64,000 nucleotides of DNA from an uncultured virus (IMG/VR IMGVR_UViG_3300022822_000015) (taxonomy: Duplodnaviria > Heunggongvirae > Uroviricota > Caudoviricetes): IMG/VR virus record IMGVR_UViG_3300022822_000015. The stretch is one strand, 5' to 3'. The first letter of the stretch is position 1, and every line of letters begins with the position of its first letter. Below the pieces are notes generated by a model that saw nothing but the letters and a program-made list of their open reading frames with translations, searched no databases and was not told the DNA's origin. Shown in pieces: positions 1 to 61,544 of the stretch. A program made the position numbers and the translations under genes.

Positions 1-65
1 TAATATTTGGCATATTTCGACCATCCTATAACATAAGTATAAGGTTTATAACTAATGGTAGACAT
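1..65 (-). CDS. GIY-YIG (Seg-like) homing endonuclease, N-terminal fragment running off the window
   Basis: ATG at 65 after a GAGG RBS; translates MSTISYKPYTYVIGWSKYAKY..., resembling the PYTYxIGW..YYG start of phage GIY-YIG nucleases. Confidence 0.55.
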   Translation of the reverse strand, partial: MSTISYKPYTYVIGWSKYAKY

Positions 66-131
66 GATAGCTAATACCTCATTTGAGTTTATAGTAAGAT
101 TCATAATACGATTATCTTCAATTTACCATTA

Positions 132-139
132 TATTTATA
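132..139 (-). promoter_or_regulatory. T4-type late promoter TATAAATA
   Basis: Exact TATAAATA on the minus strand just after the gp17 stop. Confidence 0.7.
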
Positions 140-143
140 ATAA

Positions 144-2091: not shown

Positions 2092-2097
2092 TATTTA

Positions 2098-3995: not shown

Positions 3996-4039
3996 TTGAA
4001 CCTGCTTTGTATTTAGTTGTGGTTTCTATAAAGTATGTG

Positions 4040-4795
4040 TTAACCAATGAAAAAATCTAAAGGAGCCTCCCAGTTAATTTGCATATCAGTTTCTAGTTTT
4101 TCAACCTCAGCATTCGCTTCTTCCCACATTATCTGTCCGTTCATAGTAACACCACCTGGGAGAAGCATGCCTTCAAATTTCTTCAAATTTGTTCCCCATT
4201 GGCGCTTAATTAATGCTGTTATGTAACGTTTCAGAAACATATCATTATAGACTGAAACGTAAGTTTCTGGGTTAATTATAACAGATGCATCTAATATGAT
4301 CCAATCATTTTCCTTTATGTCAGTACCCCACTGAATGTAAAGGTGTAACTTATTCTGGTGACGACTAAATCGTACTTGACTTGAAGTATTGAACATATCA
4401 CGAGCTTGAGTTAATTGCCCTTGCATTTGAGAATAATATGCCATGCCTTGAAATCCACCCGATCTTAAATCGTAGACGTCATTATACGCCATTTGATAAT
4501 CGATATTAAAGATGCCGCCGCCGCTTCCAGCGCCAGATGTGTTGAGTGGAACAATTCTAGTAATAACTGATATGTCTGAAGGCAGGGTTACAAATTCATT
4601 AGAGATGTCTGCCGCGGTAATTTGTATTTTGTAGTATGAATTTAAAATAGCGTCTGAATGATACATCTGATAAAATTCAATACCTTCGTCTACTCGGTCA
4701 GAAACTTGATCATCATCTACATTGATCTCAAGCACTGGCGCGCCTAATTGTCTTAGACAATAATCAATAAGCTCGTTTCGTGTTGTGACTACCAT
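4040..4795 (-). CDS. 13: T4-like neck protein (gp13)
   Basis: YCLRQLGAPVLEINV, KRQWGTNLKKFEG.LPGGVT.NG. Confidence 0.93.
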   Translation of the reverse strand: MVVTTRNELIDYCLRQLGAPVLEINVDDDQVSDRVDEGIEFYQMYHSDAILNSYYKIQITAADISNEFVTLPSDISVITRIVPLNTSGAGSGGGIFNIDYQMAYNDVYDLRSGGFQGMAYYSQMQGQLTQARDMFNTSSQVRFSRHQNKLHLYIQWGTDIKENDWIILDASVIINPETYVSVYNDMFLKRYITALIKRQWGTNLKKFEGMLLPGGVTMNGQIMWEEANAEVEKLETDMQINWEAPLDFFIG

Positions 4796-4823
4796 TTCAG
4801 TACCTGTATATTTCTGTTTATGT

Positions 4824-4831
4824 TATTTATA
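4824..4831 (-). promoter_or_regulatory. T4-type late promoter TATAAATA upstream of gp13
   Basis: Exact consensus about 29 nt upstream of the gp13 ATG. Confidence 0.75.
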
Positions 4832-4839
4832 ACTTTATA

Positions 4840-5361
4840 TTATTTAATATACCAAACAAGTTGAAGGCCTAATCCGTCATAACCGTTACGGTCTTTTCCT
4901 AACACGCAACTATGATGAGTCAACTGTCCGTTGATTGCAATAGCTTTATTACTTGACAACCAAAAATTTTGATTAATGCCTAGGTTTGATGTACCGTGTT
5001 CATCTGTGCTTCCTGAGACGCACTGAGGAGATATCTTTTTAGTATAATCAATTCCAATAAAAACATATGTATGGTTAAAATACGTTCCATTATCAAATAT
5101 ACTATCGGCGTGTGCAGGTTTAATAATTGAGGAAAGAATCCATAGTACTCCAGCAATTATTATAATAGTACCGATACCCAATGCGGCTGATGCCACGGCT
5201 CCTTTTCCTTCATTTGCCCGCCATGAAGCAAATGAAGCCTTTTTTATAATAAAAATGTAAACGCTATATGCAATAACTAAAAGCAGTATAAGTGCTAAAA
5301 ATGATAATGCCTGGGTCATAAAAGAAATCATAATCTTAAGTCCTTTGTTATAATAGATCAA
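4840..5361 (-). CDS. Membrane protein with two hydrophobic segments and a beta-rich C-terminus; start uncertain
   Basis: Two TM-like stretches, AHA-D signal-like site, aromatic C-terminus. Confidence 0.6.
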   Translation of the reverse strand: MIYYNKGLKIMISFMTQALSFLALILLLVIAYSVYIFIIKKASFASWRANEGKGAVASAALGIGTIIIIAGVLWILSSIIKPAHADSIFDNGTYFNHTYVFIGIDYTKKISPQCVSGSTDEHGTSNLGINQNFWLSSNKAIAINGQLTHHSCVLGKDRNGYDGLGLQLVWYIK

Positions 5362-5713
5362 GCAATTCTTGCTCGGTTGTTGTGGAATCTATATCAATTT
5401 GCATTTTGTCGTCATTGTCTCGAATAACTTTTCTATCGGATTCTGCTTGTGTTGCGTCTTGGCTCGGTATCTGCTTCATTATGATTGCATCATGTGGTGC
5501 AAAGTCCTTCTCTCGTTTTGCTCTGCGTAACTCATGTGCAACCTCCTTCGCTAAAGGTAAATCAGTTACCACCGCGTCACCTACAATTCTCCACGCACCA
5601 CGAAAGACCTTATCAGGGACTGACACAACTTCAAGCCATGTTGCACCTTCAGGTATTGAGGACTGCTTTGAGCAAATCGCAACGGTGTTATCTTCTTGTT
5701 GATATGCGTACAT
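5348..5713 (-). CDS. Tail-fibre-associated (assembly chaperone-like) protein
   Basis: FRGAW...AKEVAHELRRAKR..FAPHD pattern typical of small genes after marine phage fibre genes. Confidence 0.6.
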   Translation of the reverse strand: MYAYQQEDNTVAICSKQSSIPEGATWLEVVSVPDKVFRGAWRIVGDAVVTDLPLAKEVAHELRRAKREKDFAPHDAIIMKQIPSQDATQAESDRKVIRDNDDKMQIDIDSTTTEQELLDLL

Positions 5714-12979: not shown

Positions 12980-13432
12980 TTAATCTACAACACACCAATC
13001 TTCAGACATTATATCTATTACTGTACTGGCATAGGGTATTTTTCTTGTGCCTTCTTCACAATCAGGAATAACAAAATAAGGATAAGAAACAGTCATTTCA
13101 GAGTTTGTAGAGTTACGAAGTACTAAGTACATACCTTTTCCATTCCAACCTGCTCTACATACTTTAGAACCACGTTTAAGTAATTCTATTGCGTGACCAA
13201 ACGTTAAATTACCACTAGTTTTATATGAAGTTTCAAACACATCTTTAGGTGACCAACTGATGTAACCATCGTAAGCAGCTGTATTAGGAAACCCTGTTTC
13301 AAGATACTCAACTAAATAACCTTCATCAGTACCATCTTCGTCATCAGGTAATACCCAACCTCGAAATTCGTTGTAATCTAAACGACTCATAGGTTTTGCA
13401 GACACTAATTTTGTTCCTACAAAAATTTCCAT
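12980..13432 (-). CDS. tad2: Tad2-family (DUF2829) nucleotide-signal sponge with an extra N-terminal domain
   Basis: TFGHAIELLKRGSKVCRAGWNGKGMYL and D.MSEDW; N-terminal GYLVEY...YISWSPKDVFE. Confidence 0.8.
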   Translation of the reverse strand: MEIFVGTKLVSAKPMSRLDYNEFRGWVLPDDEDGTDEGYLVEYLETGFPNTAAYDGYISWSPKDVFETSYKTSGNLTFGHAIELLKRGSKVCRAGWNGKGMYLVLRNSTNSEMTVSYPYFVIPDCEEGTRKIPYASTVIDIMSEDWCVVD

Positions 13433-13710
13433 TAGAAAAATTCCGGCTGCGCTACTGCTCTGGTTGCGTACATTAAACCGGTCTGTAAATCTGTTTTAGC
13501 TAGTGCCAAGAATCGTTCAGGTGTTGAATTTTTAATGTGGTCTTTTTCTTTTTTAGTCATGTCTGGACTGTATTGACTAGATACGTGTTTAGAAATTTCA
13601 ATAAGTACTTCTTCCATTTTAGGACCAAGTGCTTTAATTTTGTTCATTAAGTCGATTTCGGTCTGTGAGAGTTCACGGTATCCAGTAATTTTGCGGTGCT
13701 GGTTGTCCAT
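13432..13710 (-). CDS. acb2: Acb2-family anti-CBASS cyclic-nucleotide sponge
   Basis: MDNQHRKITGYRELSQTEIDLMNKIK and LALAKTDLQTGLM...RAVAQP closely match my recollection of Pseudomonas phage Acb2. Confidence 0.88.
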   Translation of the reverse strand: MDNQHRKITGYRELSQTEIDLMNKIKALGPKMEEVLIEISKHVSSQYSPDMTKKEKDHIKNSTPERFLALAKTDLQTGLMYATRAVAQPEFF

Positions 13711-13743
13711 CTTTAAATCCTGTATAGGTTGTTTAAAAATTAA

Positions 13744-13772
13744 AATATACACTATGTACTTTTTGTAGTCAA
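13744..13772 (-). promoter_or_regulatory. Sigma70-like promoter for acb2-tad2
   Basis: TTGACT-17 nt-TATATT, about 34 nt upstream of the acb2 ATG. Confidence 0.65.
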
Positions 13773-46929: not shown

Positions 46930-49900
46930 TTAGTAAAAAACACCCTTAAAAACATTCTCAGGAACTACGCTTCCAACTCCAACAGACTCTAACGGCATGT
47001 GTGCAATACCACCGTAACGAGTACTCATGTTAAGAACGTTAGCACTAAAGATAGTGTTCATGTTTCCTGTTACATACTCTTGTATAACCATTTCAGTAGA
47101 CAAGTTAACAGGTTTATCTTTAACCATTCTGTAAATAGCTTTCTGTATACGTAACCAGTAAGAAGGAAACATTAGTATACCTACGTCGCTTAGCTGTTTA
47201 ACAGCCATAGGCAAGTTTTCTTTGTAATCAGGAAAAGAGTCAAGTACGTGTATTCGTGCTTGTGAAGGTGTCATTTTCTCATTCTGAATAGCATGTCTGT
47301 ACAGAGTTTCTTTAGCAAACACATCAATCCTATCCGTTACACTAGAACCTAATCTTACAATTTCACTATTTGGGCTAGTAGTAAACTGAGATACATAACC
47401 TACAACATCCTCGTCCGTCTTCAATTCCTTAATACGATCAGTAACCATATCAAGTTGCTGTTGAGCACCTTTACCATAACCAGATTTACCAACTATCCCG
47501 CCAATATGACTTAAGAAGTCCTCACCTTGAAAACCAATCTTATTTAACGTTTTAATAAAATGAGCTACAACATTCTTATTACCTTTTCTGTCTGTAAGCA
47601 TGTACTCAAGTGCTGTTTGAACATCAGCTTGGAATCCAGAAGAAGCATCAGAATTTTTAGCTACAAGATCAGAACCTAGAGAGTTAATAAAACCTTTGTT
47701 ACCTAAGTTACCTACAGAAGTATTATCAATCTGAGTTTTTAACGCAGTTATTCTATCCTTTATAGCTTGATTGTCTTTAGTACCTACTAACCTAACTTTT
47801 AGCTGAATAATTTCATTAGTTATATTTTGATACTTATCATAGTCTTTAGATATTTCTAAAAAGTTTTTACCTATAAACAATGGTGAAGCACCTGCAACAC
47901 TTAAGTAAGCTACGTTAGACATAACATCAATAGCCCATTTAGCAGGGTTTACAACAACCATACCTATTTTAGAACCAGCTGTAAGGTCTTTTACTATTCT
48001 CATTGCCCACTTCATGTGGTGATTATCAATAAGCGATTTAGAAAATCCACCTATAAGTAAATGAGACATGTCTTTTCTTACTAGCGTAATTTGGTCACTA
48101 AATTTTACACCGCTAGTTCCTTTTACATCAGAAATTCTACCACCAACTGGTTTGTATCTAGCTCTAATAGACTTGTCTAATGTGTTGTAAGCTTTGCCAT
48201 CATCTAGCTTAACAAACCAAGGGTTGTCCATGTTATCAGAATCAACTACTTCTTTTAACTTACCTAGATCTGTATCGTTTGTAGCAAGAAATCTATTTTC
48301 AGACATAACTATGTTATTTCGTATTATCTGAGAATCCTTAATAGCCATGCTGTGTGCTGCACCTCTAACAAGAGTATTTACAAAGTCAGTCTCTATACCT
48401 AAAGTTTCTTTTTCAGCAGGACTAAGTACTACTTTAAATTTGTTACTTTCAGCTTTAACAACGTTAGAGTAGTTTATTTGACTAGCACTAGTTACGTCTA
48501 CGTCTGTAGAACTCAACTTTATGTCAGTGTATGCTCCACGAAGTTCTGTAGAATCAATAAGCTTTTTGTAAACAATACCTAAATTGTCTTTAGTTGGATT
48601 TCTTAATACTTTCCAACCTGTTTCTTCACCTATTTCATAAGATCTTAAATCTTTAAGTTCTATAGCTTTTGTTTGATGAGATTCTTTGTAGTACTCAGGC
48701 AACATACTGTCTCTTAAACCTTCAGTACCTTCTACACCTAGCATAGTAACTCTATTAGCAATACTATTGTCTTTAACTAGGTTAACTAAATCAGTTTTAG
48801 CTAGGAATGACTCAAATTCTTTATTACCTATTTTTTGTATGGACTTAAGAGCTAATAACTTTCTAATGTCTACACTAAATGTAGCACTATCTGACATAGC
48901 ATAAGTAGAAGCTAAGTTGTACAATTTGCCACCTTCTTTAGTACCTGCCTCAGTTTCTACAGTACGTTCTACGTTACGTTCAATTAAGTGATCTACATCT
49001 CTAATAGCAGACTTACTAACTTTTTTTATTTCAGTCTCTAACCGGGTTACTTCAGCGTCTATTTGACTGCTTGTAGTAATGTCACTAGCAAACACAAAGT
49101 AATCATGTAGCGGTAATTGAGTTACAAACCTGCCTATAGTACTAACCTCATCTTTAGACACACCAGTAAGTGCTTTTTTAAACTCACTTTTTTGAAAAGC
49201 AATAGAAGAAATTTGCTGACCTTCCAGTAAAGCTGAATCAGCTAACAAATCTGCCTTGTTAACTTTATTAGTACCTTCACCAGTAATAGTTTGAACTAAA
49301 CCTTGAAGTGCTTCAGACCCTTCGTAAATGCCGGATAATTTATCAGCAGCATCACTATAAAGAGGAAACAACCTTTTCATGTTTTTGTCTAAAGTGTTTA
49401 ATAAACGTTTACCTTTTCTTTCAATTTTACTGTTAAGCATACTAGATACAGCAGCATTTAAATAACGAAGTGAAGCTTTGTCTTGCATATCAGCAGCACT
49501 AGTTGTTTGTCTATTTTTTCCAGAAAACAAAACTGTTTCAAATTGTTTTTGCATATCTGTAATAAAGTTTATGTCTTCTTCTCTTTTACTTTTTCCTGAA
49601 ACAATAACACCATTAATAGCAGAAAATAACTTTTCAGCATTAGGATCACCAATTTTAAAATCAGCGTAAGTAACATTATTAATAATAGTTATTACTTTAT
49701 TTTTGACAAATTCTAATACTTTAGCTAATTTATTTTTAGAAGTGTTATTTAGTGAACTGTACACTTCAGCAGCTACATCAGGTTCTGAATTCATAATAGC
49801 AATAAATTCAGATAACATAGTTTCTTGTGAAGAATTTATATCAATGTAATCCATTCGTTCTTGAGTTTTATTACTAAAAGTTTTTCTTAAAACATGATTC

Positions 49901-52900
49901 ATAGTTTTATCTATGTAAGCCATGTTTAAGTCTAATTGAGTACTGGTACCACTAGTTTTATTAGCAAATCTTTTAACCCAATCAATTACAACTCCTGCTG
50001 TAAAACTGTGAACTATTTCATGTTCAATAAGTTCTATTCTAGTTTTACGATCAGTAGAATTTTCTGAAATAACTACAGTATCAGTTTCAGTATCAAATTC
50101 AAATTCTTCACCTATTCTTACATTAGAACTGTTAGATCCTTCAAGAAAACTTTTAATAATAGGTGATTCTTCTTTGTACTGCTCTAATATAGTTTCTACG
50201 TCTGTAAGTGACTCAGTAGCTGTTTCTGGCTCACTAGCAGTTGTAGTAGTATTAGGAGCAGCATTATCAAATGCGTCCTTCATAGCTGAATTAGAAGGGT
50301 TAGCAGTAGCAGGTTCAGCATTAGGAACAGTAGCAGTCTCAACTTCTGTATTAGCATCAGCACCAGCAAACTCTCTGGCTTTTATACTGTTACCAATAAG
50401 AGCGTTAGTCTTCATGTTCATTCTTTCACTGTTAGCTATTTTAGCTTTAGCAGCTACTCTTGCATCAATCTTTGCTTTAAGTTTAGTAAACTTATCTGAC
50501 TTAGCTAGTGCAGGATCATAAAACTCAATAGAGTTTAGTACTTGTTGATGAGTGTCATACTCACCTAAAAGTCTTTTATTTAATCTTACGTAAGCTTCTT
50601 CTACAAGGCGTACAGTCTCTGTTGTGCCAATTATCTGATCGTGTACGACAATTGCACCGCTATCACCTAGGACTTCGTTTATAGCGTGATACATAAGCCC
50701 AGAGTCTATTCCGTGTATAACAGACACATCCATTATAGATTGAAACAGTTCTTGTTTACGTGTTAGTACTGTGTGGCCACCTTCTTTAGCTAGGTCACTA
50801 TCTCCGGTTAAAGGACTAGATACTTCAACAATTTTTGTAAGAGGCATACCATAAGTTTTAACTTGGTCAATACCAATACCATCTAATACAGCTCCAAAAG
50901 GAAGTACTTTCATTCTATGGTTATCTTTAACTTGAGTAGCTAAATTATAAATGTCAGCACCATCTTTTCTAAAGTCTTTTAGGTAAGCTTCGTAAATTTC
51001 TGCCTGCATTATTTCATACAGTTGTTTAGGAACACCTTTAGTAATAAGAGCAGATTTAATATTAGAGTACAGACCTGATATGTCTTTTAAATCTTTACTG
51101 TCAGCATTTTTAAGACTTGGTGAATCCATTAGGTCACCTAAGTAATCTCTAATGTTTTCGTCAGCTAGGTTGTCTATAATACGTTTAGCTAGGGTGTCAG
51201 CCATAGATTTAACAGCTCCTTTAGGTCCCTGTCCGTATATAAATACCATAGTAGGATCTTTAGCAAAGGCTCTTTCACCTTCTTTAGTACCACCAAATAA
51301 CAAGTTTAAAGTAGTTTGTAATAATTCTCTTACGTTGCCTTGGCCTATGTCTGGTGACATAACTAAACTGTCTTTTTTATTAATAAACCTGCTAGTAGCA
51401 TCTGACATAAGTGCGTAAACGTCATCTATTTTATTTTCGTCTAGTACTAAATTTCCATCTGCATCTGTAATAATACCTATGCTTTCCATAAACGTTTCTA
51501 CATTGGCGTTAGTTCCTAATGCTTGTTGAAATGTTAATGTACCACCCTGTGCTGTAGCGTCAGCTGAATCCATAAGCTCAGTTTGTAAAGTGTCACCAGT
51601 ATTATCTCTAATATCTTGAACACCTTTTAAAGTTACTAACAATGCTGCGTAGTCTACGCCTTGAAATCTTTCAGGTAGGTTACTTAAAGCTACTATTTTA
51701 CGTTGCAGAGTTTTTGCATTTTCGTAACTTTTAAAGTCTTGTAAAGCAGCATCTAGATTAGCATTGCCACCTTCTACAATTTCTTTATAAGTCAGTTCTT
51801 TATCATCTAGTGTTTCTTTAATGCTGTACACAAGACGGTTAAAATCAAAAGACTTTACTTTAACTGACTGAGTACCACTAGTAAGCATGTGTCTGCTTTG
51901 TTTAGATGCATGAGCGTTTAACACACTGTTATCGTAGTAAAGTCTTATGTTTCTACCACCTTTCATTATCATGTGCAGTTCTTCAGGATTACCTTCAGAA
52001 TTAACAAGCTGGTTATAAGTTTCTATAATATCGTCTAAAGGTACTGTTTTAGATAAGTTTTGACCACTAACACTTTCTTGCCTATCAACAGAGTGATCAT
52101 CAGAAGTTTTAATTCCAAATAAAGACTTAATCATTAAAGGTTTATTTTTAAACTTGTCAGTTAAAAGTTTTGTAGCTGACTCACCTGTTTTGTCAGTTTC
52201 TTCTTTAATAAGTGCAAATAAATCATGTACTGTGTTATTTACGTAAAGAGGATTATCAAATAATTTCTGTCTAGCACTTTGTGTACTAGGAGATTGAACA
52301 TTACCATCAGGATCACTTTGAGCTACATCAACTGAACCGTCCTGTTTACCTGTGTAAGGCATAGTAATATTAGATGGCTGTGTCACATGTCTTACAACAG
52401 ATAACGTGTCTACTATGGTACCTAGTTCGGTACCGCTTAAGTCAGCTGCAGTTCTATTAAGAAAATGAGATGACTCCTGAGACAAAGTATCAGTAAGTTT
52501 ACCGGAAGAACTAACTTTGTATTTAGAAATGCCTAGTTTACTTGTATTTAAAGAAACACTTTTAGCATTTGTTGTTGTAATTTTCTTTGACTCAAAAGTT
52601 TGTGTTATAGCTTCACTGTCAGTGTAATCACGAATAGTAGTTACATCATCATGAAAATTTACATAGCCTTTTTCTTCAAGTAGCTCTAGTGCTGCTATAC
52701 CTTGAGTGTAATAAAGTTGCTCAATTTCTGCTGCAGTCTTAGGACTTTCTTCCATAGACTTGTATCTAGCTTGGTTTTTGTACATCCATTTACGACCAAT
52801 ACTAGCAGCTAGCCTAGACAATGGTAGTACTGGAAGTATTCCATCTACAGACAATTGACTCATTTGTACGTCATTATTACGTGCTTTGTCAGACTCACCT

Positions 52901-53241
52901 TTAACTGCTTCCATAACTTCATGAAGTGCTATAGCTTTTGAAATACTGTCTTGATCTACATTATCGTTGTCTATACCAATAATATCTTCTTTAAAAGTAT
53001 CAGCTTTTTGACCAGAATTTAATATTCTTGTAAGAGCATTCTCTATTTTTAAAAGAGTAGGTTTAGATTCATCTTTACCCGGAAGTCCTTCAACACTATT
53101 AGTATTTACAAGTCTGTGAACATCTTCAGGTGTAATATTCCATACATTAAAACGCATGTTTTTTTCTGTATTAGGATCTATTTCTACACCATTAAATTCT
53201 TGAATGTATTTTAAATATAGTTCTGGTGAAGGACAGGACAT
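46930..53241 (-). CDS. Virion RNA polymerase: catalytic domain, zincin motif and C-terminal domain (N4 gp50-like, lacking the N-terminal domain)
   Basis: GRNIRLY, motif A SADATAQG, motif B RAFAKDPTMVFIYGQG, VIHGID, motif C VVHDQ, HEIVH; one Cys in 2103 aa. Confidence 0.88.
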   Translation of the reverse strand: MSCPSPELYLKYIQEFNGVEIDPNTEKNMRFNVWNITPEDVHRLVNTNSVEGLPGKDESKPTLLKIENALTRILNSGQKADTFKEDIIGIDNDNVDQDSISKAIALHEVMEAVKGESDKARNNDVQMSQLSVDGILPVLPLSRLAASIGRKWMYKNQARYKSMEESPKTAAEIEQLYYTQGIAALELLEEKGYVNFHDDVTTIRDYTDSEAITQTFESKKITTTNAKSVSLNTSKLGISKYKVSSSGKLTDTLSQESSHFLNRTAADLSGTELGTIVDTLSVVRHVTQPSNITMPYTGKQDGSVDVAQSDPDGNVQSPSTQSARQKLFDNPLYVNNTVHDLFALIKEETDKTGESATKLLTDKFKNKPLMIKSLFGIKTSDDHSVDRQESVSGQNLSKTVPLDDIIETYNQLVNSEGNPEELHMIMKGGRNIRLYYDNSVLNAHASKQSRHMLTSGTQSVKVKSFDFNRLVYSIKETLDDKELTYKEIVEGGNANLDAALQDFKSYENAKTLQRKIVALSNLPERFQGVDYAALLVTLKGVQDIRDNTGDTLQTELMDSADATAQGGTLTFQQALGTNANVETFMESIGIITDADGNLVLDENKIDDVYALMSDATSRFINKKDSLVMSPDIGQGNVRELLQTTLNLLFGGTKEGERAFAKDPTMVFIYGQGPKGAVKSMADTLAKRIIDNLADENIRDYLGDLMDSPSLKNADSKDLKDISGLYSNIKSALITKGVPKQLYEIMQAEIYEAYLKDFRKDGADIYNLATQVKDNHRMKVLPFGAVLDGIGIDQVKTYGMPLTKIVEVSSPLTGDSDLAKEGGHTVLTRKQELFQSIMDVSVIHGIDSGLMYHAINEVLGDSGAIVVHDQIIGTTETVRLVEEAYVRLNKRLLGEYDTHQQVLNSIEFYDPALAKSDKFTKLKAKIDARVAAKAKIANSERMNMKTNALIGNSIKAREFAGADANTEVETATVPNAEPATANPSNSAMKDAFDNAAPNTTTTASEPETATESLTDVETILEQYKEESPIIKSFLEGSNSSNVRIGEEFEFDTETDTVVISENSTDRKTRIELIEHEIVHSFTAGVVIDWVKRFANKTSGTSTQLDLNMAYIDKTMNHVLRKTFSNKTQERMDYIDINSSQETMLSEFIAIMNSEPDVAAEVYSSLNNTSKNKLAKVLEFVKNKVITIINNVTYADFKIGDPNAEKLFSAINGVIVSGKSKREEDINFITDMQKQFETVLFSGKNRQTTSAADMQDKASLRYLNAAVSSMLNSKIERKGKRLLNTLDKNMKRLFPLYSDAADKLSGIYEGSEALQGLVQTITGEGTNKVNKADLLADSALLEGQQISSIAFQKSEFKKALTGVSKDEVSTIGRFVTQLPLHDYFVFASDITTSSQIDAEVTRLETEIKKVSKSAIRDVDHLIERNVERTVETEAGTKEGGKLYNLASTYAMSDSATFSVDIRKLLALKSIQKIGNKEFESFLAKTDLVNLVKDNSIANRVTMLGVEGTEGLRDSMLPEYYKESHQTKAIELKDLRSYEIGEETGWKVLRNPTKDNLGIVYKKLIDSTELRGAYTDIKLSSTDVDVTSASQINYSNVVKAESNKFKVVLSPAEKETLGIETDFVNTLVRGAAHSMAIKDSQIIRNNIVMSENRFLATNDTDLGKLKEVVDSDNMDNPWFVKLDDGKAYNTLDKSIRARYKPVGGRISDVKGTSGVKFSDQITLVRKDMSHLLIGGFSKSLIDNHHMKWAMRIVKDLTAGSKIGMVVVNPAKWAIDVMSNVAYLSVAGASPLFIGKNFLEISKDYDKYQNITNEIIQLKVRLVGTKDNQAIKDRITALKTQIDNTSVGNLGNKGFINSLGSDLVAKNSDASSGFQADVQTALEYMLTDRKGNKNVVAHFIKTLNKIGFQGEDFLSHIGGIVGKSGYGKGAQQQLDMVTDRIKELKTDEDVVGYVSQFTTSPNSEIVRLGSSVTDRIDVFAKETLYRHAIQNEKMTPSQARIHVLDSFPDYKENLPMAVKQLSDVGILMFPSYWLRIQKAIYRMVKDKPVNLSTEMVIQEYVTGNMNTIFSANVLNMSTRYGGIAHMPLESVGVGSVVPENVFKGVFY

Positions 53242-56200
53242 TAAATTTTACACCTTGGATTTAGTTTAGTATAAAGAGCTTCAGCTTTTTTCTTGTCAGA
53301 AATAACTTGTGAAGGTTCATTATCAAATGATTCTGTCATAACTACCTCTGTTTGTACATCAGGAAAAGCTTGTTCAAATGCACTAAGTATTTCAGGGTAC
53401 TTATCTAAAGAAGTAAAATTTCTTAGTAAGTTTTTAACTTCAGCAATATTAGTATAACCAGCTTCTTTAAGTTTTGTAATTATTTTAGGTAACGTAGGAG
53501 TAATTGTAGTAGAAACAATTGCTTGTTTAGAAGGACTATCTTCAACAGAAGCAATTATACTATCAAATGAACTTAGTTGTTTATTTATAGTGTCACGTTT
53601 CTTTTGTACTTCTGGTGTTACTTCAACAGTTTTTATTTCTTCAACAGCAGCTTCCTGTTTTGTAGAAGGAGTAGGTTTAGGACTAGGAGCAGCAGGTCTT
53701 TTAGGACCTACAACATTTTCTTTCTTTTCTGGTCCAACAACTAATTCTTTAGCAGCAGTAGCAGTATCTGTAACTGTTTTAGCAACTGAGTTGTAAGCAT
53801 TTTCTAACTGTTTATCAAATTTAGCCATACCTTCTTCAGTTTCAAGATTAGGCATATCAGGCATATTAGGTAAGTCAGGTAAAAATTCCTTAACTTTTTT
53901 TGTAAAATCTTTAGAACTTTCTGAGTCTAAAAGACTTATCAATTCTTTTGTTGATTCAGCATTTTTAAAATACTCAACTAAACCTTTAGATTTAATATTT
54001 TTAGACAACTCAGCTATTTTAGCTTTAGCTTCTGTTCTAACAGGTTTACGTATTTTATTTGATTCTAGTTTTAACTTGTTAGTAAGTACACCTAGACTAA
54101 CTTTGTTTTTGCCTTTTTTAACTGAATCAAGTTCTTTGTATTTATCTAGGGCAGCCTCAACAATTTCTAAAGAAGGTAAATCTGCTACTTTGCCATTTAT
54201 TGTATCTGAAACAAGTTTAAATACAGAGTCTGCTCCATTTTCTGAAAGAGCTGGACCTTTAGCAATATCTTTTAGCTCTGGCTTAATATTGTCTATAGTT
54301 GTTAAAGTATCGTTACTTTGACCTATATTTTTTAAAGCTTGTTTTTTATTAGCAAGAGTTTTCTGTAATTTCTTGGCTAGGTCCGGGTGTTTTTTATCAA
54401 TAACAGATATTACTTTTGTAAGATCGTTTATTTCCATATCTTTAACAGCAGCTAAAACAGTATTAGAAGACTTAATTCCGTTTCTAAGACCTAACTCTAT
54501 AACACCTCTAGCAGTACTAGATTCTAGATTTTTAACAATTTCTACACTTGCTGTACCAAGTGCAGTAACAGTTTTAACTAAGTTTTCTACAGGAACATTT
54601 TTTAGAAGTTTTTTAGCTTTTTCAGTACTTTTGTTTACAACATTAGTACCTACTTTGCTTACAACTCTTCCTACACTAGTTGCCATTAACTCTGTTTTTA
54701 CAAGAGCTTGATCACTTCTAAATTGACTAATTAACTTAGTTTTTATAGAGTTAAATTGTTTTGGATCAGCAGCAGCTTCAGTAGTTATGTTCCCATTAGT
54801 TTGTATTTTTATGGTTTCTACACCTACTACGTCATCAGCTAGTAAGTCATCAATAGTTTTAGCATTTAAAACAGTGTCAATATTTTTTTCTTTGCCTGCT
54901 ATTTCTTTATCTGCTATAGCTGTTCTTGCTGTTTCAGATTCAGACAATACTGCACGATCTGTTTCAGACAATAGTTCAAAACTTGCTTTAGTAAGTGCAT
55001 CTTGACTTATTTCTTTAACTTTTTTACCACCTCTTACAGCAACACCTGCAGTTCCTACAACAGTGTCTAAAGCTGCACCAGCAACAACTCCCGGAGCAAC
55101 AGTAGCACCTTTAACACCACCGCCTACCATAGCACCTACTAAAGCAGAGTAGTTGGCTTCATCTATATTACCTTCTTCATTAAGTTCATCTAAAGCAGAC
55201 CTAATAGAAAAGTCATCCATCTTAGCTTGTAGTATTGAATGCCAAGTTTGTAAATATTCTAGTGTTGCTTCTAATCCGCCAACAGCAGACACTTTTACAG
55301 CAGCTTTTAGTACTCTTTTAGCAACTTCTACACTGTATTTTTTAGGTATAGGAGACAATGCTTTTGAAATGTCTTTTGCATATTGTTTAGTAGCGTTTTT
55401 AGCAACTGTAACACCTGCTATAGATGGCAAAGCACTCATAAATATAGCTCTATCAAACATCATAAGTGCTAAAGCAGCAGGAGCATTAACTAATTTGTGC
55501 ATAACTGAAGACGCTTCACCATTTTCTTTAATGTAAGCTTCTTCATTTTGTTGTAATACAGCAGCAGTTGATAAACTTACTTGACTAGCTTTTTTACCAA
55601 CAGACTTAGTAGCAGCTAGTGCTTTTTGTAATACGTTTAATTTTACACCTGCATCTTTAGCAGCTACTGCATCAGTAACAGCATCTGATATATCACCTAT
55701 TGCATTAGCACCACGAAAAAGCTTTTTACCAAGCATAGGTAAACCACCAATACCAGCAGTACCAAGAGTACCAGCAATGCCTGACGCTATTGTTCCAGTT
55801 AAACTGTCTACAGCTAGTTCTGGAAGTACTTTTGCAGTTGTACTTATAGCGTCTATTACATTACCTGCTGCGTCTAAATACTCACCTTCTCTTAAACTTA
55901 TTCTAGCGTTAGCTAAACTGTTTATGCCTGAAGATGCTGCTTCATTAAGCTCTTGCCTTACCGTGGCTCTAACGTTACTTCTAACGTCAGCTTCTTCCAT
56001 TAGATTAGGGTTAGATTCTCCTGAAGCAATATTTTTTATGTTGTTAAATTCTCTATCAACAGCAGCAGTACCTAATGAGTACAAGTCATTAGCAAAACTA
56101 GTACTATTTGCAAGACCACCATTAAATCTGTCTATGTTGTTAGCTTGTTCTTCAGACACAGGAGTAACTTTAGGTTCAGGTGTAAGCTTTTGTTGCTTAC

Positions 56201-56300
56201 TTGCTATTTTGTCTTTTAAAGAATCAATTTTCATGTCCAATAAAGAAGACGAGTAGTCTACCTGATAAGCATTTCCAGCATTTCTAAATATTTCAGACAT
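53241..56300 (-). CDS. Ejected virion protein, probably the detached N-terminal domain of the vRNAP
   Basis: 1019 aa, Gly/Ala hydrophobic segments, one Cys; TAATG-coupled to the polymerase ORF. Confidence 0.65.
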   Translation of the reverse strand: MSEIFRNAGNAYQVDYSSSLLDMKIDSLKDKIASKQQKLTPEPKVTPVSEEQANNIDRFNGGLANSTSFANDLYSLGTAAVDREFNNIKNIASGESNPNLMEEADVRSNVRATVRQELNEAASSGINSLANARISLREGEYLDAAGNVIDAISTTAKVLPELAVDSLTGTIASGIAGTLGTAGIGGLPMLGKKLFRGANAIGDISDAVTDAVAAKDAGVKLNVLQKALAATKSVGKKASQVSLSTAAVLQQNEEAYIKENGEASSVMHKLVNAPAALALMMFDRAIFMSALPSIAGVTVAKNATKQYAKDISKALSPIPKKYSVEVAKRVLKAAVKVSAVGGLEATLEYLQTWHSILQAKMDDFSIRSALDELNEEGNIDEANYSALVGAMVGGGVKGATVAPGVVAGAALDTVVGTAGVAVRGGKKVKEISQDALTKASFELLSETDRAVLSESETARTAIADKEIAGKEKNIDTVLNAKTIDDLLADDVVGVETIKIQTNGNITTEAAADPKQFNSIKTKLISQFRSDQALVKTELMATSVGRVVSKVGTNVVNKSTEKAKKLLKNVPVENLVKTVTALGTASVEIVKNLESSTARGVIELGLRNGIKSSNTVLAAVKDMEINDLTKVISVIDKKHPDLAKKLQKTLANKKQALKNIGQSNDTLTTIDNIKPELKDIAKGPALSENGADSVFKLVSDTINGKVADLPSLEIVEAALDKYKELDSVKKGKNKVSLGVLTNKLKLESNKIRKPVRTEAKAKIAELSKNIKSKGLVEYFKNAESTKELISLLDSESSKDFTKKVKEFLPDLPNMPDMPNLETEEGMAKFDKQLENAYNSVAKTVTDTATAAKELVVGPEKKENVVGPKRPAAPSPKPTPSTKQEAAVEEIKTVEVTPEVQKKRDTINKQLSSFDSIIASVEDSPSKQAIVSTTITPTLPKIITKLKEAGYTNIAEVKNLLRNFTSLDKYPEILSAFEQAFPDVQTEVVMTESFDNEPSQVISDKKKAEALYTKLNPRCKI

Positions 56301-56306
56301 AGTTAG

Positions 56307-58313
56307 TTACTTACCTTGTTCTTCTAATAAAAGTTTCAAGTATTCTGCTTGTTGTTTTTCAGCTCCTGATTTAGGTTTAAAATCTTTTAGTTTTTGATCA
56401 CCTGTTCTAAGAGCTTCTAATAACTGTTTAATTTTATCTTCATCAACTTTACTTTTTAAATCTCGAAGTTTTTGGAGTTTTACATTGCTTGCAGTTTTTT
56501 CAGCTTTTTCTTGAGCTTGTTCAAAATTAAAATTTTGTAGTCTAAAATCAGTACCATTAGGGTTAGTTCTTTCAGGTCGATCTCCAGCACTGTAGTTAAA
56601 AATAGAAGTATCTTTATACTTAGGATTTTTTGCGTCTACTTCACTTAAACCTTTTTGAGCTGCAGCTTTTTCTGCTTCAGTACTATTAGGGTCTAATGCT
56701 ATAGCTATAAAACCTCTTTTATCAGCAGCAACTTTTTGAGATTTAACTTTTGCTCTAGCCTCTAATTCTTTAGCTTTTGTAGTTATTTCTTTAGTTTTAA
56801 GTTCAGGTGTGTACGTATTACCGGGACCAGAAAGTATTCTATTTTCAGCAGGTGTAATATCTCTTTCTTTTGTGCTAATAGGAGCTTCTACAGGTTCTTC
56901 AACATCATCACTAGTATCTATTTCATCTTCAGAAATTATAGGCTTAAGCTTAATTTTAGGCTTAGTTTTAGGTTTATTTCCACCTAGTTTAAAGTCTCTA
57001 CTAACTCCTGTTTGTTCTTCAATAAACTTTTGAGCTTGTTTTTGTCTTTCTTCAGAAGTAGTAGCTTGCTGTATAGAATTTTTTAATATTTTGTTAATAG
57101 AGTCATCGTACTGAGAAATTAAACTATTATATAGAGACTGTTGTTGTTGAAATTTTTGATCATTACTTTCACTACCACCAATTTTTCTACTGCTAGAAGC
57201 TTCTTGGTTTTGTTGAGCACCTAGTGCAATAGCAGCCATAGTATCATCGTTAGACATCATATCTGATATGTCTTTGCTAAACGTACCATCACCATTTATT
57301 AATTTTAAAGCTCTCATAGCTCTAATAGTGGCTGCTGGTCCAACTTTAGATTGAGACTGACTAGCAGCAACTATAGTTTGTAAATCATCTATAGACATAT
57401 CAGGAGAATTTAAAGGAAATAAACCAAAAAATGTTTCAGGAGTAAGTGCTTCACTGATCCATTTTATAGCACCTTTACTTTGAGGAACATTTAATGTTTC
57501 TGAAATATCTTTAAAAGCATCAGCATTTTCTTTTTGACTTATAGAACCAGTTTTAAATGCGTTAGTTCCAATATTAGTAGTATTACTATTTCCTGAGTTG
57601 CTAAATATTTTGCCAGCAAAATTTAATCTATTTTCAGCATTTTTACTTAATCTTTCTTGACTTTTAACATCTAACACACTGTAATTTTCAGTAGCTGTTT
57701 GTTGCATTTGTGCTATTTCTGTTTCACTTAGACCAGCTTCTCTTGCTAAAGCAGCTACATCTGATTTTATTTTAGCAGGGTCTTGATACAGTCTAGGGTT
57801 ATCAATCATATTTTGGATAAACCCATCCATAAGATCATCTTTTCTTTTATAACCATCTACTTGATTTAGATTTATAGAAGTATTTCTTCCACCGTCACTA
57901 ATAGTTCTTGTACCAGAAGTTTGTGTTTGGTAACCCGGAGAATTAAATATAGCTTGTTTTGTGCCTTGTTCCATCTCAAAAGAAGGCTGCATATCTTTAG
58001 CTTGTTGAATTAAATTGCTCATAGCTAAATTTTTATCTATACCTCTTTGTTTTTCTAAATCAAAAATACGTTGTTCTTCAACTACAGCTCTTTGACCTTC
58101 GTTTTCACGAAAATTTTGTTGTCTTTCAAAATTGGCTTGTTGTTGCATAACAGCATTTTGCTCAAGCTGTGCATTTCTAGCTTCTTGCATTTGTGCATTT
58201 ATACTAGCAAGACCTTTTTGAGAACTCTCAATAGAACGTGCAGCGTTAGCAAAAGCTTGGTTAGAGCCACTAAAGTTAGGATTTATTCTAGATCTAAAAA
58301 GTTCACCAGCCAT
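56307..58313 (-). CDS. N4 gp51-like ejection protein
   Basis: 668 aa, Gln-rich, no Cys; synteny. Confidence 0.6.
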   Translation of the reverse strand: MAGELFRSRINPNFSGSNQAFANAARSIESSQKGLASINAQMQEARNAQLEQNAVMQQQANFERQQNFRENEGQRAVVEEQRIFDLEKQRGIDKNLAMSNLIQQAKDMQPSFEMEQGTKQAIFNSPGYQTQTSGTRTISDGGRNTSINLNQVDGYKRKDDLMDGFIQNMIDNPRLYQDPAKIKSDVAALAREAGLSETEIAQMQQTATENYSVLDVKSQERLSKNAENRLNFAGKIFSNSGNSNTTNIGTNAFKTGSISQKENADAFKDISETLNVPQSKGAIKWISEALTPETFFGLFPLNSPDMSIDDLQTIVAASQSQSKVGPAATIRAMRALKLINGDGTFSKDISDMMSNDDTMAAIALGAQQNQEASSSRKIGGSESNDQKFQQQQSLYNSLISQYDDSINKILKNSIQQATTSEERQKQAQKFIEEQTGVSRDFKLGGNKPKTKPKIKLKPIISEDEIDTSDDVEEPVEAPISTKERDITPAENRILSGPGNTYTPELKTKEITTKAKELEARAKVKSQKVAADKRGFIAIALDPNSTEAEKAAAQKGLSEVDAKNPKYKDTSIFNYSAGDRPERTNPNGTDFRLQNFNFEQAQEKAEKTASNVKLQKLRDLKSKVDEDKIKQLLEALRTGDQKLKDFKPKSGAEKQQAEYLKLLLEEQGK

Positions 58314-58320
58314 TATATTA

Positions 58321-58785
58321 TTACCCTATTGCACTACCATCTACATTAGCTGCTTTAGCTCTTGCCATTCGGTCTATATATTCTTGACTACCAGCTTCCA
58401 CACTATTTAATGCTAAACCATTACGAGTTCTTTCCATAAGATCTGCATTATAAGAAGTTGCATTATTAGCAAGACTTCTATTCATACCAGCTAGCTCAAT
58501 ACCAAACTGTTTTTTTCCTTGCTTACGCATTTGGTGAGCATTATACATACCATATAGGCTACCTAAACCTTGAGCAGCTAACCCAAAGTTTTGAAATCCA
58601 TTTAAAGATTCTGGTGCTTTTGGGTAATTTTGATCACCCATTAAAACACCATTACCTGCATTCATTCTGTAGTCTTGTGGTTTATAACTAAAATCGTCAT
58701 AGGAAGCTGCTAAACTAAATTCTTTAGCAGGGTCGTATATTTGTGTTGTTGTAGGAATTTTGAAATTACTGTAAGTTTCACCCAT
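58321..58785 (-). CDS. N4 gp52-like small ejection protein
   Basis: 154 aa, GLAAQGLGSLYG hydrophobic segment; synteny. Confidence 0.6.
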   Translation of the reverse strand: MGETYSNFKIPTTTQIYDPAKEFSLAASYDDFSYKPQDYRMNAGNGVLMGDQNYPKAPESLNGFQNFGLAAQGLGSLYGMYNAHQMRKQGKKQFGIELAGMNRSLANNATSYNADLMERTRNGLALNSVEAGSQEYIDRMARAKAANVDGSAIG

Positions 58786-58802
58786 AATTCTGTACCTTTT
58801 TG

Positions 58803-61544
58803 TTAAACTACACCTAAAGTTAAGGCGTTTTTATGATAGTTGCCCACTACTGTACCATAATCATACATGCTAGAATAGTTGTATTGTATTGGTCCAGCCA
58901 TAAACCTATATGTGTCAGGACTATTAAGAAAAGCTAGGTAGGTTGGGTCTAATCCATTTTCTTGTGCTTCTATTAATCTAGCTAGTTCTTGTGACCTAAT
59001 ATCAAATTGATTATTTATTTCTAGCATCTCTGCTTGAAGCTCTAGTATATCTGCATTTATATCAGCTACTATCATATTACTAAACTGTGTGACGCTTTGT
59101 GTAATAACAGCAGGATCACTCATACCTGTTGAACCTGAACCAGTTTGGCTAGTTAAGTAAGCAGCACCAGCAGCAACAACTACTTTTAAAAATTCACTAT
59201 CTATACTAGATATTATAGCAATTGCTATAGAAATAATAACATAATTAGCTAATGCAACCTGAAAAAAAGCAGCTAAAGATAGTTTTGTAGGGTCAAAAGT
59301 TATCAGAGTGTAAACTATTAGTACTATTTCTAGTAAATCTGCAAACGCTGAAGTTTCATACCAAGCCACTTCAGTTATCTGTACAGAATAAAAATTCATC
59401 CTTAAAGCTAGGGTGTACAACTGTAGTTGTTCAACTGGAGTTAAACTATCAATAGAAAAATGAGACAACAGTATAGAAAAGTTATCATCCCCTAGTTTAC
59501 TAAGGCTCATGTTTTCTTGCCCATTACCTAAAATAAACTCTATACCAGACATGTTTGTTAATACAATTGTAGAACAAGAAGTAGTAGACACCTGTTTTCT
59601 CATAGTAAGAGTGTTTACGTTAGTTACAGTATGGCTGTAAGTACCAATTGGACCTGAATCAAATATGGTAGTAGAAGCATTTTGTGTAGACCATACTACA
59701 GCTCGTTTTACATTTTGTTCTAAAAACGTAGCATAATACCCTTGGTTGTCTACTGTTGTATTAAAATCAACAGCTTCTGTAATTACTAATGTATAAAACA
59801 TCTCATAAAGAATTTTAGAAACTACTGTTGCTGTATCAGTAGGGTTTACAGCGAAGGATAAAAATCCTTCTGATATACCAGCAATATTAGGGTTAGCTTC
59901 TATTTGTTGTATTATGTCGTTAAACTCTAAGTCTAAAGTACCTAATAGCCCTACTATACCATCATAGTTTTCTTGTCCTACACTAACTACACTGGCAGAA
60001 ACTGTGTTAGACCTAAGTATACCAATAGGCATAAACTCTAAGTTACTTAAACTACTGCTTACCATTTTAACATCAGGGTAAGTATTACTACTTATGTCAT
60101 ACACCCAATATTTCCATTCAGCAATTTCGTCAATATAGTAAGTAACAATTACATAAGAAATAATTCTATAAGCAGGTCTAGTAATCACACTAGTCAAAGT
60201 TTCTGTTAAAGGAGATGGCATATTAGTGTTATCTGTGTCTACAGGGTTAGCAACACTATAAGTAATAGTAGTTGATATGCTGTGTTTTCCTTCAGCTAAA
60301 GCGGTAGCTTCAAAACTGTCTTGTGTAGAGATACTTTCTATACTTACAACCATAGTAACAGAGGAACTTAACAAGTTTACTGTTTCCGGGGTTATAGTAA
60401 AACCTAAACCTGTACCACTAGAAGAAATTTGGTTTATGGTAGTTCCTGCAGAAGCATCACCACCAGAACTTGTCACTGTAAAAGTTATTACATTTCCGTC
60501 TACATCTACACTATCTACTGTTAACACATCATCATTGTCCAAAGTTATTGTGTCTAATGCACTGTAGAAATTAGTACTGTCGCTTCCAGAACTAGAGTAC
60601 GAACCATTACTGCCAGAATCATCGTAGTTTGCCTCTGTTTGATCTTCTAACAAGGTATATTCATAAGGTAATGAGTTTGCTTCAGTACTAATAGTAAAGT
60701 CTGTGTACGATGTACCAGCTAGCAATACTACAGTATCAACTGAGGTAAAATGGGTACCGTTTGTAGCTGTTCCTGTGTAACTTAAATTAACTGTGACAGT
60801 TTTGTTAGCAGGTATAAGTCTATCGACACTAACTGTGTACATTAGTGTGTTATCTCCTTGAACTACTTCTGAATAACCAGATAAATAAAACGTAGCAGTT
60901 TCTCTTAGTCTCTGTACTGTTAATTGGTAGTTATTAGCTCCTGCATTGTACGTAACAGCAGATAAAAAATAGCTATCGAAAGTACCGTACTCGTCACTAA
61001 AAGTTAATGTATTAAGATGGGGAAGATAACTATAAACATTTTGTAAATAGTGTTTAAAATAAACTTCTTTTGTAGGGTACTTTTGTACTGCACTAGTAAT
61101 ATTAACTGTGTAACCAGTTATAGAAAACAAAGCATTAATAACAGCAGATTGGTCTATAGTATTTTTACGTACATTTGTTGTAGGTAAAGCATAAGGATAC
61201 TCACCTTCTTCTGCGTAATTGTAGTAACCGTCTATTTTTCCTTGAGCAACTTTAGTGTACTTATTAAACGGAGATATTAATGCAATAGCAGAATTTTTTG
61301 TGTACTCAAGTGCTATTTTAACTAACGCATCTTCTTCTAGATCTGTAGTTGAAGGATAAACTTTCTGTGAAACATGTTGTACTTGTACTACGGTCTCATC
61401 TTCGATACCAAATATACCTACTACAAATTCCAGTAAAGGCATAACAATATCATCCCATACTGTTTCTACAGCCTCTACTACTCCTTCAACAACATCTTCT
61501 ACTATGTCTATTATATCTTCAATAATTTCTACAACAGCACCCAT
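58803..61544 (-). CDS. N4 gp53-like virion protein with Calx-beta/Ig-like insertion and C-terminal TM segments
   Basis: 913 aa; synteny; VAWYET.F then hydrophobic helices; MG start with acidic amphipathic helix. Confidence 0.65.
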   Translation of the reverse strand: MGAVVEIIEDIIDIVEDVVEGVVEAVETVWDDIVMPLLEFVVGIFGIEDETVVQVQHVSQKVYPSTTDLEEDALVKIALEYTKNSAIALISPFNKYTKVAQGKIDGYYNYAEEGEYPYALPTTNVRKNTIDQSAVINALFSITGYTVNITSAVQKYPTKEVYFKHYLQNVYSYLPHLNTLTFSDEYGTFDSYFLSAVTYNAGANNYQLTVQRLRETATFYLSGYSEVVQGDNTLMYTVSVDRLIPANKTVTVNLSYTGTATNGTHFTSVDTVVLLAGTSYTDFTISTEANSLPYEYTLLEDQTEANYDDSGSNGSYSSSGSDSTNFYSALDTITLDNDDVLTVDSVDVDGNVITFTVTSSGGDASAGTTINQISSSGTGLGFTITPETVNLLSSSVTMVVSIESISTQDSFEATALAEGKHSISTTITYSVANPVDTDNTNMPSPLTETLTSVITRPAYRIISYVIVTYYIDEIAEWKYWVYDISSNTYPDVKMVSSSLSNLEFMPIGILRSNTVSASVVSVGQENYDGIVGLLGTLDLEFNDIIQQIEANPNIAGISEGFLSFAVNPTDTATVVSKILYEMFYTLVITEAVDFNTTVDNQGYYATFLEQNVKRAVVWSTQNASTTIFDSGPIGTYSHTVTNVNTLTMRKQVSTTSCSTIVLTNMSGIEFILGNGQENMSLSKLGDDNFSILLSHFSIDSLTPVEQLQLYTLALRMNFYSVQITEVAWYETSAFADLLEIVLIVYTLITFDPTKLSLAAFFQVALANYVIISIAIAIISSIDSEFLKVVVAAGAAYLTSQTGSGSTGMSDPAVITQSVTQFSNMIVADINADILELQAEMLEINNQFDIRSQELARLIEAQENGLDPTYLAFLNSPDTYRFMAGPIQYNYSSMYDYGTVVGNYHKNALTLGVV

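Follow-up and report, generated by a model that had tools for sequence, protein, structure and literature searches.

A virion RNA polymerase encoded by two genes with a cysteine at each broken end, and a possible disulfide in place of the missing linker

The virion RNA polymerase (vRNAP) of phage N4, gp50, is a single chain of 3500 residues that contains no cysteine, as an earlier note on the DNA studied here, made from its letters alone, had stated. In this DNA, a stretch of 64,000 nucleotides from an uncultured virus of the Caudoviricetes (IMG/VR record IMGVR_UViG_3300022822_000015; the whole stretch is referred to as the window), the vRNAP is encoded by two overlapping genes, and each product carries one cysteine, placed at the end that faces the other protein. 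The locus raises the question of whether this break is genuine and what the two cysteines might do. We conclude that the window contains the genome (about 64 kb) of an N4-like podophage, in which the vRNAP is broken, at the linker between its N-terminal domain (NTD) and its RNA polymerase (RNAP) domain, into two proteins. We further consider it probable (at about 0.72), from sequence comparison and a modelled complex, that in the virion the two chains are joined tail to head by a disulfide, which takes the place of the missing linker.

The broken polymerase and its two cysteines

The features at the break, all on the minus strand, are the following.

53241..56300 (-): NTD gene, 1019 aa, product ending NPRCKI before the stop; equivalent of the N-terminal, membrane-associated domain of N4 gp50
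46930..53241 (-): RNAP-CTD gene, 2103 aa, product beginning MSCPSP; polymerase domain and C-terminal domain (CTD) of the vRNAP
53239..53243 (-): TAATG stop/start overlap that links both genes, read from the sequence
53256-53251 (-): AAGGTG, likely ribosome-binding site upstream of TAATG, read from the sequence
53250..53252 (-): TGT codon of Cys1017 of the NTD protein, 3 residues from its C-terminus
53233..53235 (-): TGT codon of Cys3 of the RNAP-CTD protein, an invariant column in the polymerase alignment (A7)

The stop codon TAA (53243-53241) and the start codon ATG (53241-53239) have one base in common. Direct translation and counting bore out the pair of open reading frames (ORFs), their overlap and the single cysteine codon that the earlier note had read in each: residue 1017 is the only cysteine of the NTD protein and residue 3 that of the RNAP-CTD protein, the remaining 3120 residues being cysteine-free. 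At the cysteine frequency of the window (0.76%, or 119 of 15,614 residues in 41 ORFs of at least 150 aa) about 8 cysteines would be expected in the 1019-aa protein and about 16 in the 2103-aa protein, and the probability of finding no other cysteine is 4.3e-4 and 1.1e-7, respectively. The chance that the lone cysteine lies within 3 residues of the facing terminus in both proteins is approximately (3/1019)x(3/2103) = 4e-6. The placement of the cysteines is far beyond chance expectation.

Assembly support at the junction, a check suggested by the earlier note, was found in two contigs (contigs, not raw reads), both with 0 differences and 0 gaps. The first is a 62,437-base contig from a run that may be the source of the record; the second, of 484 bases (53085-53568), comes from the independent sample X10 and spans the junction with no indel. 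The junction is uncovered in X11, and in X12 a piece begins 21 bases away from it, which is too little to qualify as bridging.

The downstream protein is composed of three parts, again encoded on the minus strand.

50362..53241 (-): polymerase (mini-vRNAP-like) domain, about residues 1-960; model confidence collapses after residue 961
50212..50358 (-): low-complexity, cysteine-free internal linker, about residues 962-1010; predicted local distance difference test score (pLDDT) <50 for residues 962-1000
46933..50211 (-): CTD, about residues 1011-2103, defined by PHROG 2206 and by BLASTP to N4 gp50

Residues 1-1000 were modelled with AlphaFold2 from 14 sequences, with a mean pLDDT of 81.8 and a predicted TM score (pTM) of 0.81. 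When the model was compared with the PDB by Foldseek, ranks 1-10 were all N4 mini-vRNAP/gp50 entries (E 7e-13 to 9e-11, TM 0.46-0.48 over about 1100 columns), followed by mitochondrial and T7 RNAPs; the predicted fold is that of a T7-like single-subunit RNAP of the N4 mini-vRNAP type. The CTD is of the gp50 type: residues 1773-2072 match positions 3133-3377 of the 3406 of PHROG 2206 ("virion RNA polymerase", E 9.4e-21), and BLASTP aligns residues 1973-2072 with 3371-3471 of N4 gp50 (E 2e-4), with a second weak, colinear match of residues 579-692 to 1611-1702. Pfam contains no family for either protein of the window (PF00940 was found in 2 of 14 polymerase relatives), and PDB sequence searches with P0002 and with the polymerase profile A3 returned no match.

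Because of the structural matches to N4 vRNAP, the polymerase domain is taken to begin with the first residues of the 2103-aa protein. In N4 the RNAP domain comprises residues 1007-2101 and follows a low-complexity linker of residues 907-1006 (PMC13434306; this and the other papers are cited from the parts of their text available to us). The break in the window therefore falls at the NTD-RNAP linker of N4.

The identity of the upstream protein was established through its family. An NTD profile (A4, 14 sequences), searched among 1.84 billion representatives at E<=0.001, matched 203 proteins, including full-length fused vRNAPs in their N-terminal regions. Among these are proteins of 3149-3275 aa, which are full-length vRNAPs by PHROG 2206 and are matched in their N-terminal 286-605 region (E 4e-18 to 3e-13), which identifies the upstream protein as the detached NTD. 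Together with the mini-vRNAP fold of its neighbour, this supported the earlier placement of the split at the boundary of the NTD and the polymerase. The connection to the NTD of gp50 itself runs via intermediates only: BLASTP of the NTD protein against N4 gp50 gave a best E of 0.054 (non-colinear, not significant), hhalign of the NTD profile against it gave a probability of 1.2% (not significant), tblastn against the phage collection gave no match, and a homologue search with the single sequence P0001 recovered only 3 relatives besides itself. Cys1017 is one of only 13 invariant columns in A4 and stands within an otherwise hypervariable, unalignable tail.

The vRNAP of the window and N4 gp50 thus have in common the order NTD, RNAP, CTD, the mini-vRNAP fold, a CTD of PHROG 2206, protein bodies without cysteine, and a gene that adjoins three others of gp51-, gp52- and gp53-like sizes. 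Unlike the window, N4 has one gene, encoding a linker of about 100 residues at the position of the break (907-1006, PMC13434306), and no cysteine in place of one at each broken end; sequence similarity is marginal. Two properties of gp50, a single polypeptide of about 3100-3500 residues and the absence of cysteine, are accordingly not those of the window.

At the start of the CTD we observed an HExxH-like motif, EHEIVH (window 50008-50025, minus strand; residues 1073-1078 of the polymerase protein), which is invariant among the window and two Alteromonas phages and aligns with HELVH in N4 gp50. A putative zinc-binding motif is mentioned in this part of gp71 in the paper on phage DEV (PMC11445570).

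Conservation of the break and of the terminal cysteines

The closest annotated phages are the cultured Alteromonas phages vB_AmeP_PT11-V19 and vB_AmeP-R22Y (polymerase identity 29.5%, coverage 99%), which have the same two genes (1000 + 2082 aa and 1008 + 2083 aa, respectively). In the accessible text of the R22Y paper the name vRNAP is given to the 2083-aa protein, and the detached NTD is left unmentioned. With these two phages included, and with identical copies counted once, the two-gene split is kept in all 19 distinct junction loci found in viral and metagenome contigs (for L004 the start was taken as the ATG of TAATG). In each of them the upstream protein has a single cysteine 1-9 residues from its end and the polymerase a single cysteine at residue 3-6. 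Conservation of the split and of both cysteines, on which the earlier note had staked its proposal beforehand, was thus very strong.

The same loci bear on two reservations attached to that proposal. The first was that one additional T would fuse the ORFs. Among the relatives the intergenic gap varies from -4 to +16 nt and all three relative frames occur, and therefore no single frameshift or read-through could fuse the genes. The second reservation was that the upstream cysteine codon of the window overlaps the Shine-Dalgarno sequence. In the relatives this codon is either TGT or TGC, at a distance of 6-35 nt from the following start; the overlap therefore does not explain the cysteine, and a Shine-Dalgarno or translational-coupling constraint was rejected as its cause. 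As judged from these sequences, selection acts on the cysteine residue, and not on the DNA or the ribosome-binding site.

The pattern extends to proteins collected without regard to the junction. Exactly one cysteine, at residue 3-7, is present in 35 of 35 polymerase homologues from a large protein collection (1836-2324 aa, 31-100% identical over the first 500 residues, the protein of the window included), while 5'-truncated polymerase fragments have none. A search with the polymerase profile A3 returned mostly the same homologues and six new proteins. In the NTD family, 137 of the 150 representatives listed (clusters at 50% identity) contain exactly one cysteine, at most 8 residues from the C-terminus, which amounts to 137 cysteines in 155,951 residues. 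The distance of this cysteine from the end is 1 residue in 32 proteins, 2 in 32, 3 in 49, 4 in 16, 5 in 3, 6 in 4 and 8 in 1. Scans of viral contigs for related loci with P0192 and P0149 gave nothing, and no partner was seen for the most distant NTD-only proteins.

Relatives in which the chain is not broken, or is broken elsewhere, serve as natural experiments. The fused full-length vRNAPs P0159, P0167 and P0176 (3149-3275 aa), each of which matches PHROG 2206 to the profile end, have no cysteine. The same is true of P0162 and P0197 (2761 and 2787 aa), whose PHROG 2206 match is confined to the C-terminal ~115 residues; the N-terminal part of P0162 is also matched by the NTD profile. Strong suppression of cysteine in such proteins has been described before: gp71 homologues of 191 schitoviruses contain 0.00075% cysteine vs 0.865% in whole proteomes, and Lokareddy et al. 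(2024) ascribed the near-zero content of Schitoviridae ejection proteins to passage through the periplasm (PMC11445570). The protein bodies encoded in the window obey this suppression, and the cysteines at broken ends form a systematic exception that is absent from the available text of that study.

A second break is found in some relatives at the site that corresponds to the internal linker of the RNAP-CTD protein (about residues 962-1010), and it is accompanied by a second pair of cysteines. The RNAP-only pieces P0192, P0194, P0195 and P0196 (1011-1060 aa) have cysteines at residue 3-4 and 3-6 residues from the end; such pieces of relatives span the first 46-48% of the RNAP-CTD protein, and separate CTD genes match it from residues 1015-1031 onward. 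In one locus (L050) all three parts are encoded separately: the NTD protein (912 aa) has its cysteine 3 residues from the end, the RNAP protein (1003 aa) has cysteines 3 and 1000, and the CTD gene, which lies 6.5 kb downstream after three cysteine-rich genes, encodes a sole cysteine at residue 6. In the related locus L049, with the same gene order, RNAP and CTD are fused in a protein of 1884 aa that has Cys3 only. The three-way alignment of these proteins (A6) is poorly resolved near the second break and was used only to establish that the linker of L049 has no cysteine. Stand-alone CTD genes in two loci encode a lone cysteine at residue 9 or 6.

Other relatives are broken at the second site alone. 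The cultured N4-like phage AltAD45-P1 resembles the window in having its vRNAP in two genes (ORF126/ORF127) with a pair of terminal cysteines, and differs from it in that the break is at the RNAP/CTD boundary instead of the NTD/RNAP boundary: the sole cysteine of its 2495-aa NTD-RNAP protein is 3 residues from the end, and that of its 1409-aa CTD protein is residue 4. Garcia-Heredia et al. (2013) described this split vRNAP, verified the stop by resequencing and detected both products on gels; they noted the cysteines, and the text available reports neither their terminal position nor an inter-chain link (PMC3821669). In the RefSeq entry (NC_021532; L054:15624-27306) the two genes have been replaced by a misc_feature, "potential frameshift", although both ORFs are intact. 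In L057 a 2804-aa protein has its sole cysteine as the last residue and the next protein has its own at residue 4. Six further proteins (2054-2804 aa) with a lone C-terminal cysteine match PHROG 2206 only to position ~1900-2050 of 3406, which is the end of the RNAP domain. On this sequence evidence, a break at the RNAP/CTD linker brings a second terminal cysteine pair. The rule suggested by all these sequences is that there is no cysteine except where the chain is broken, with 0, 1 and 2 pairs for 1, 2 and 3 genes, respectively.

A negative control is provided by Shigella phage pSb-1, whose vRNAP is distributed over three ORFs without any cysteine. The pSb-1 record also splits the RNAP II and SSB genes, and at least the second vRNAP break is inside a domain; the breaks are probably sequencing errors.

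We also observed, a few kb upstream in the 112-kb contig of L057, a 164-aa ORF (368-862) with cysteines only at residues 3 and 161, and a 768-aa ORF (867-3173) with seven cysteines, one of them at 767. These could be due to chance or to further linking by terminal cysteines.

What may hold the pieces together

The complex of the two broken ends was modelled from residues 880-1019 of the NTD protein and residues 1-420 of the polymerase, with their own alignments and 3 controls. The three runs scored 0.80, 0.46 and 0.76 (median 0.76), and the best of the 3 controls scored 0.00. Of 157 solved complexes 116 attained the mark used for these scores, as did 2 of 215 mismatched pairs; this is a rough guide only, as own alignments were used here. 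At least 24% of contacts agree between the runs, and the partner pLDDT is at least 67. The predicted docking parts are as follows.

53244..53327 (-): last 28 residues (992-1019) of the NTD protein, its C-terminal tail; confident interface
53185..53241 (-): N-terminal 19 residues of the polymerase, interface residues of the complex model

Further interface residues of the polymerase in this model are 97-98, 152-161 and 180-183, and a contact between Cys3 and Cys1017 is predicted with an expected error of 1.3 A. The model thus supports docking of the NTD tail on the N-terminus of the polymerase. The NTD and the linker are unresolved in the N4 structure (PMC13434306), and it therefore seems unlikely that the model passed by recall of a solved structure.

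We propose that the NTD protein binds the N-terminus of the polymerase through its C-terminal tail and that Cys1017 and Cys3 would then be joined by a disulfide between the chains, in the oxidising surroundings of the virion after its release. A nearly linear NTD-RNAP-CTD chain would be restored in this way, which could be retained and passed out of the capsid as a thread, as the single-chain enzyme is, and the same device would operate at the RNAP/CTD boundary when the chain is broken there. Placement of the cysteines at the extreme termini would keep the joined product thread-like, which would be in keeping with the "beads-on-a-string" mode of passage that has been discussed for the ~35 A tail tube of N4 (PMC13434306). 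After entry, the disulfide may be reduced in the reducing cytoplasm of the host, so that RNAP-CTD is freed from the membrane-associated, lipid-binding NTD; this is a plausible further step, to which we give about even odds.

Several points weigh against this proposal. The evidence for the disulfide is comparative or predicted throughout, and the score of one complex run out of three was as low as 0.46. Among the NTD representatives listed, 13 of the 150 break the rule: six are fragments of 131-637 aa, four are cysteine-free proteins of 2761-3275 aa, P0127 has 3 cysteines (one of them the last residue), and P0145 and P0183 (1320-1325 aa) have none; these last two may be truncated gene calls. 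A PHROGs search with P0145, P0183, P0127 and four others identified no family. P0193 (1116 aa) has an N-terminal cysteine only and ends inside the CTD, and is probably a truncated gene call. A search of Pfam (E<=1e-4) with the 82 ORFs of the window revealed no thioredoxin, glutaredoxin, Dsb or sulfhydryl oxidase; moreover, the cytoplasm in which the proteins are produced is reducing. Finally, the polyacrylamide gels of AltAD45-P1 show two separate bands, of 270 and 175 kDa, and its authors interpreted the cysteines as evidence against injection of the protein (PMC3821669). A search of the available text of that paper for gel conditions ("mercaptoethanol", "SDS-PAGE") found none, and the bands therefore say nothing for or against a reducible link.

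Two other ways of using the cysteines appear improbable, to a similar degree. In the first, they would hold the pieces through a shared metal ion, for example in a zinc-hook-like site of two heterodimers, and so form a reversible tail-to-head tether. The pairing rule and the predicted contact between Cys3 and Cys1017 fit such a bridge equally well, and two vRNAP copies per ejectosome have been envisioned for N4 (PMC13434306). Two thiolates alone, however, make a weak site; there is no additional conserved ligand (His, Cys or Asp), the flanking positions being variable, and by general chemistry the oxidising surroundings of an extracellular virion favour a disulfide between adjacent thiols. In the second, each terminal cysteine would bond elsewhere, in homodimers, with another virion protein, or in periplasmic disulfides made by the host Dsb system during ejection. 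Cysteines on flexible ends could reach such partners, and the 913-aa product of a neighbouring gene has one cysteine. This does not account for the constant presence of one C-terminal and one N-terminal cysteine per break, nor for the 0/1/2 pairs in 1/2/3 genes. The neighbouring 668-aa and 154-aa proteins have no cysteine, the complex model sets the two cysteines against each other, and in a homotypic scheme an RNAP piece with a cysteine at both ends would polymerise.

The remaining two explanations are contradicted by the data. Covalent re-ligation, by a thioester or a trans-splicing-like reaction that regenerates one polypeptide, is brought to mind by the cysteines on both sides of the break, which resemble native chemical ligation and split inteins, but it is very improbable: only 0-8 residues follow the upstream cysteine and 2-8 precede the downstream one, which leaves no room for intein fragments, and the virion proteins of AltAD45-P1 run as two bands (PMC3821669). 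A split intein was rejected on these grounds and on the lack of conserved flanking blocks, the flanks of the cysteines being variable in general. Least credible of all is that the split is an artefact or is bypassed (by sequencing error, programmed frameshift or read-through), with cysteines that are incidental or signal translational coupling; the RefSeq label, the overlap of the cysteine codon with AAGGTG in the window, and a 2023 survey in which the ORFs were concatenated and vRNAP splits explained by read-through or by errors of gene calling (PMC10654107) speak for it, and it is contradicted by the 19 loci with their varying gaps and frames, the use of both TGT and TGC (35 nt from the start in L005), the distant CTD gene of L050 behind three other genes, the PCR resequencing of the AltAD45-P1 stop (PMC3821669) and the unchanged junction in an independent sample, so that a conserved frameshift or read-through was rejected.

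The tail-to-head disulfide may also be part of something more general. AB-type toxins consist of a translocator and a catalytic cargo that are held by one inter-chain disulfide and separated in the reducing cytosol. By analogy, the vRNAP of the window would be similar to such two-chain toxins in outline, with a translocation part and a catalytic cargo, a disulfide outside and its reduction in the cytosol. It is unlike them in that the proteins, the organisms and the delivery route (phage tail, ejectosome) are unrelated, and in that its chains come from separate genes and would be joined tail to head at their very ends; the likeness is one of analogy and not of membership. A wider reading, which we hold tentatively and at somewhat less than an even chance, is that N4-like phages in general encode the vRNAP in 1-3 genes, that every break is mended by a terminal disulfide, and that the bond acts as a redox fuse which frees the polymerase. 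The polymerase would then be cut loose from the membrane-anchored NTD and, in three-gene forms, from the CTD. Single-chain N4 would be incapable of this, and the logic of two-chain toxins would have been reached independently, on more than one genetic background. The N4 enzyme stays anchored by its linker (PMC13434306).

Neighbouring genes, the record and significance

Upstream of the NTD gene lie three genes that can be likened to N4 gp51-53 by position and size order alone.

56307..61544 (-): three genes encoding 668, 154 and 913 aa, placed and ordered by size like N4 gp51, gp52 and gp53

The N4 proteins have 644, 150 and 885 aa, respectively, and the cysteine counts of the three proteins of the window are 0, 0 and 1. 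A PHROG search with these proteins gave matches only to families of unknown function. Terminal cysteines in gp72/gp51-type ejection proteins have been set aside in the literature as errors (PMC11445570). Given the cysteine rule, some of these proteins may be real splits with terminal cysteines; the 668-aa protein, which occupies this position in the window, has none.

The window also contains two adjacent genes of anti-defence type, at 12983-13432 and 13435-13752 (both on the minus strand); one has a Tad2-like domain (E 1.2e-18) and the other an Acb2/Tad1 hairpin (E 8.7e-15).

The record from which the window was taken (198,785 bases) looks like a chimeric assembly. ORFs at 147-3995 of the window match a T4-type terminase, a gp15 tail-sheath stabiliser and a neck protein; this T4-like part (window 1-5565) is set apart from the remainder, which is N4-like. 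Positions 131326-131961 of the record are repeated at 195436-196070 with 96% identity, 64,110 bases apart, and more diverged copies follow. The GC content of the record falls from about 0.37 to 0.30-0.34 in its last third, and other assemblies of the phage have 65,148 and 62,437 bases. The repeat, the GC shift and these assemblies indicate that the N4-like genome is probably about 64 kb in size, and not 199 kb.

A split vRNAP was already known, while the cysteine rule and the disulfide reading appear to be new. A search of the literature, covering full texts, found no paper on terminal cysteines or on a disulfide between vRNAP pieces, and the words "cysteine" and "disulfide" are absent from the available text of the N4 paper (PMC13434306), which names the exit of a 3500-residue enzyme from the capsid as an open question.

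If our reading is true, these phages would provide evidence, both natural and replicated, that packaging or ejection requires physical continuity of NTD, RNAP and CTD. They would also offer a redox-cleavable link in a phage ejection protein, and the "no cysteine" rule would be sharpened, with cysteines allowed at breaks only. Annotation practice would be corrected as well, since splits that are now flagged as frameshifts or concatenated are real and carry a signature of their own. The feature is present in three cultured Alteromonas phages (AltAD45-P1, R22Y and V19), and the proposal is therefore directly testable.

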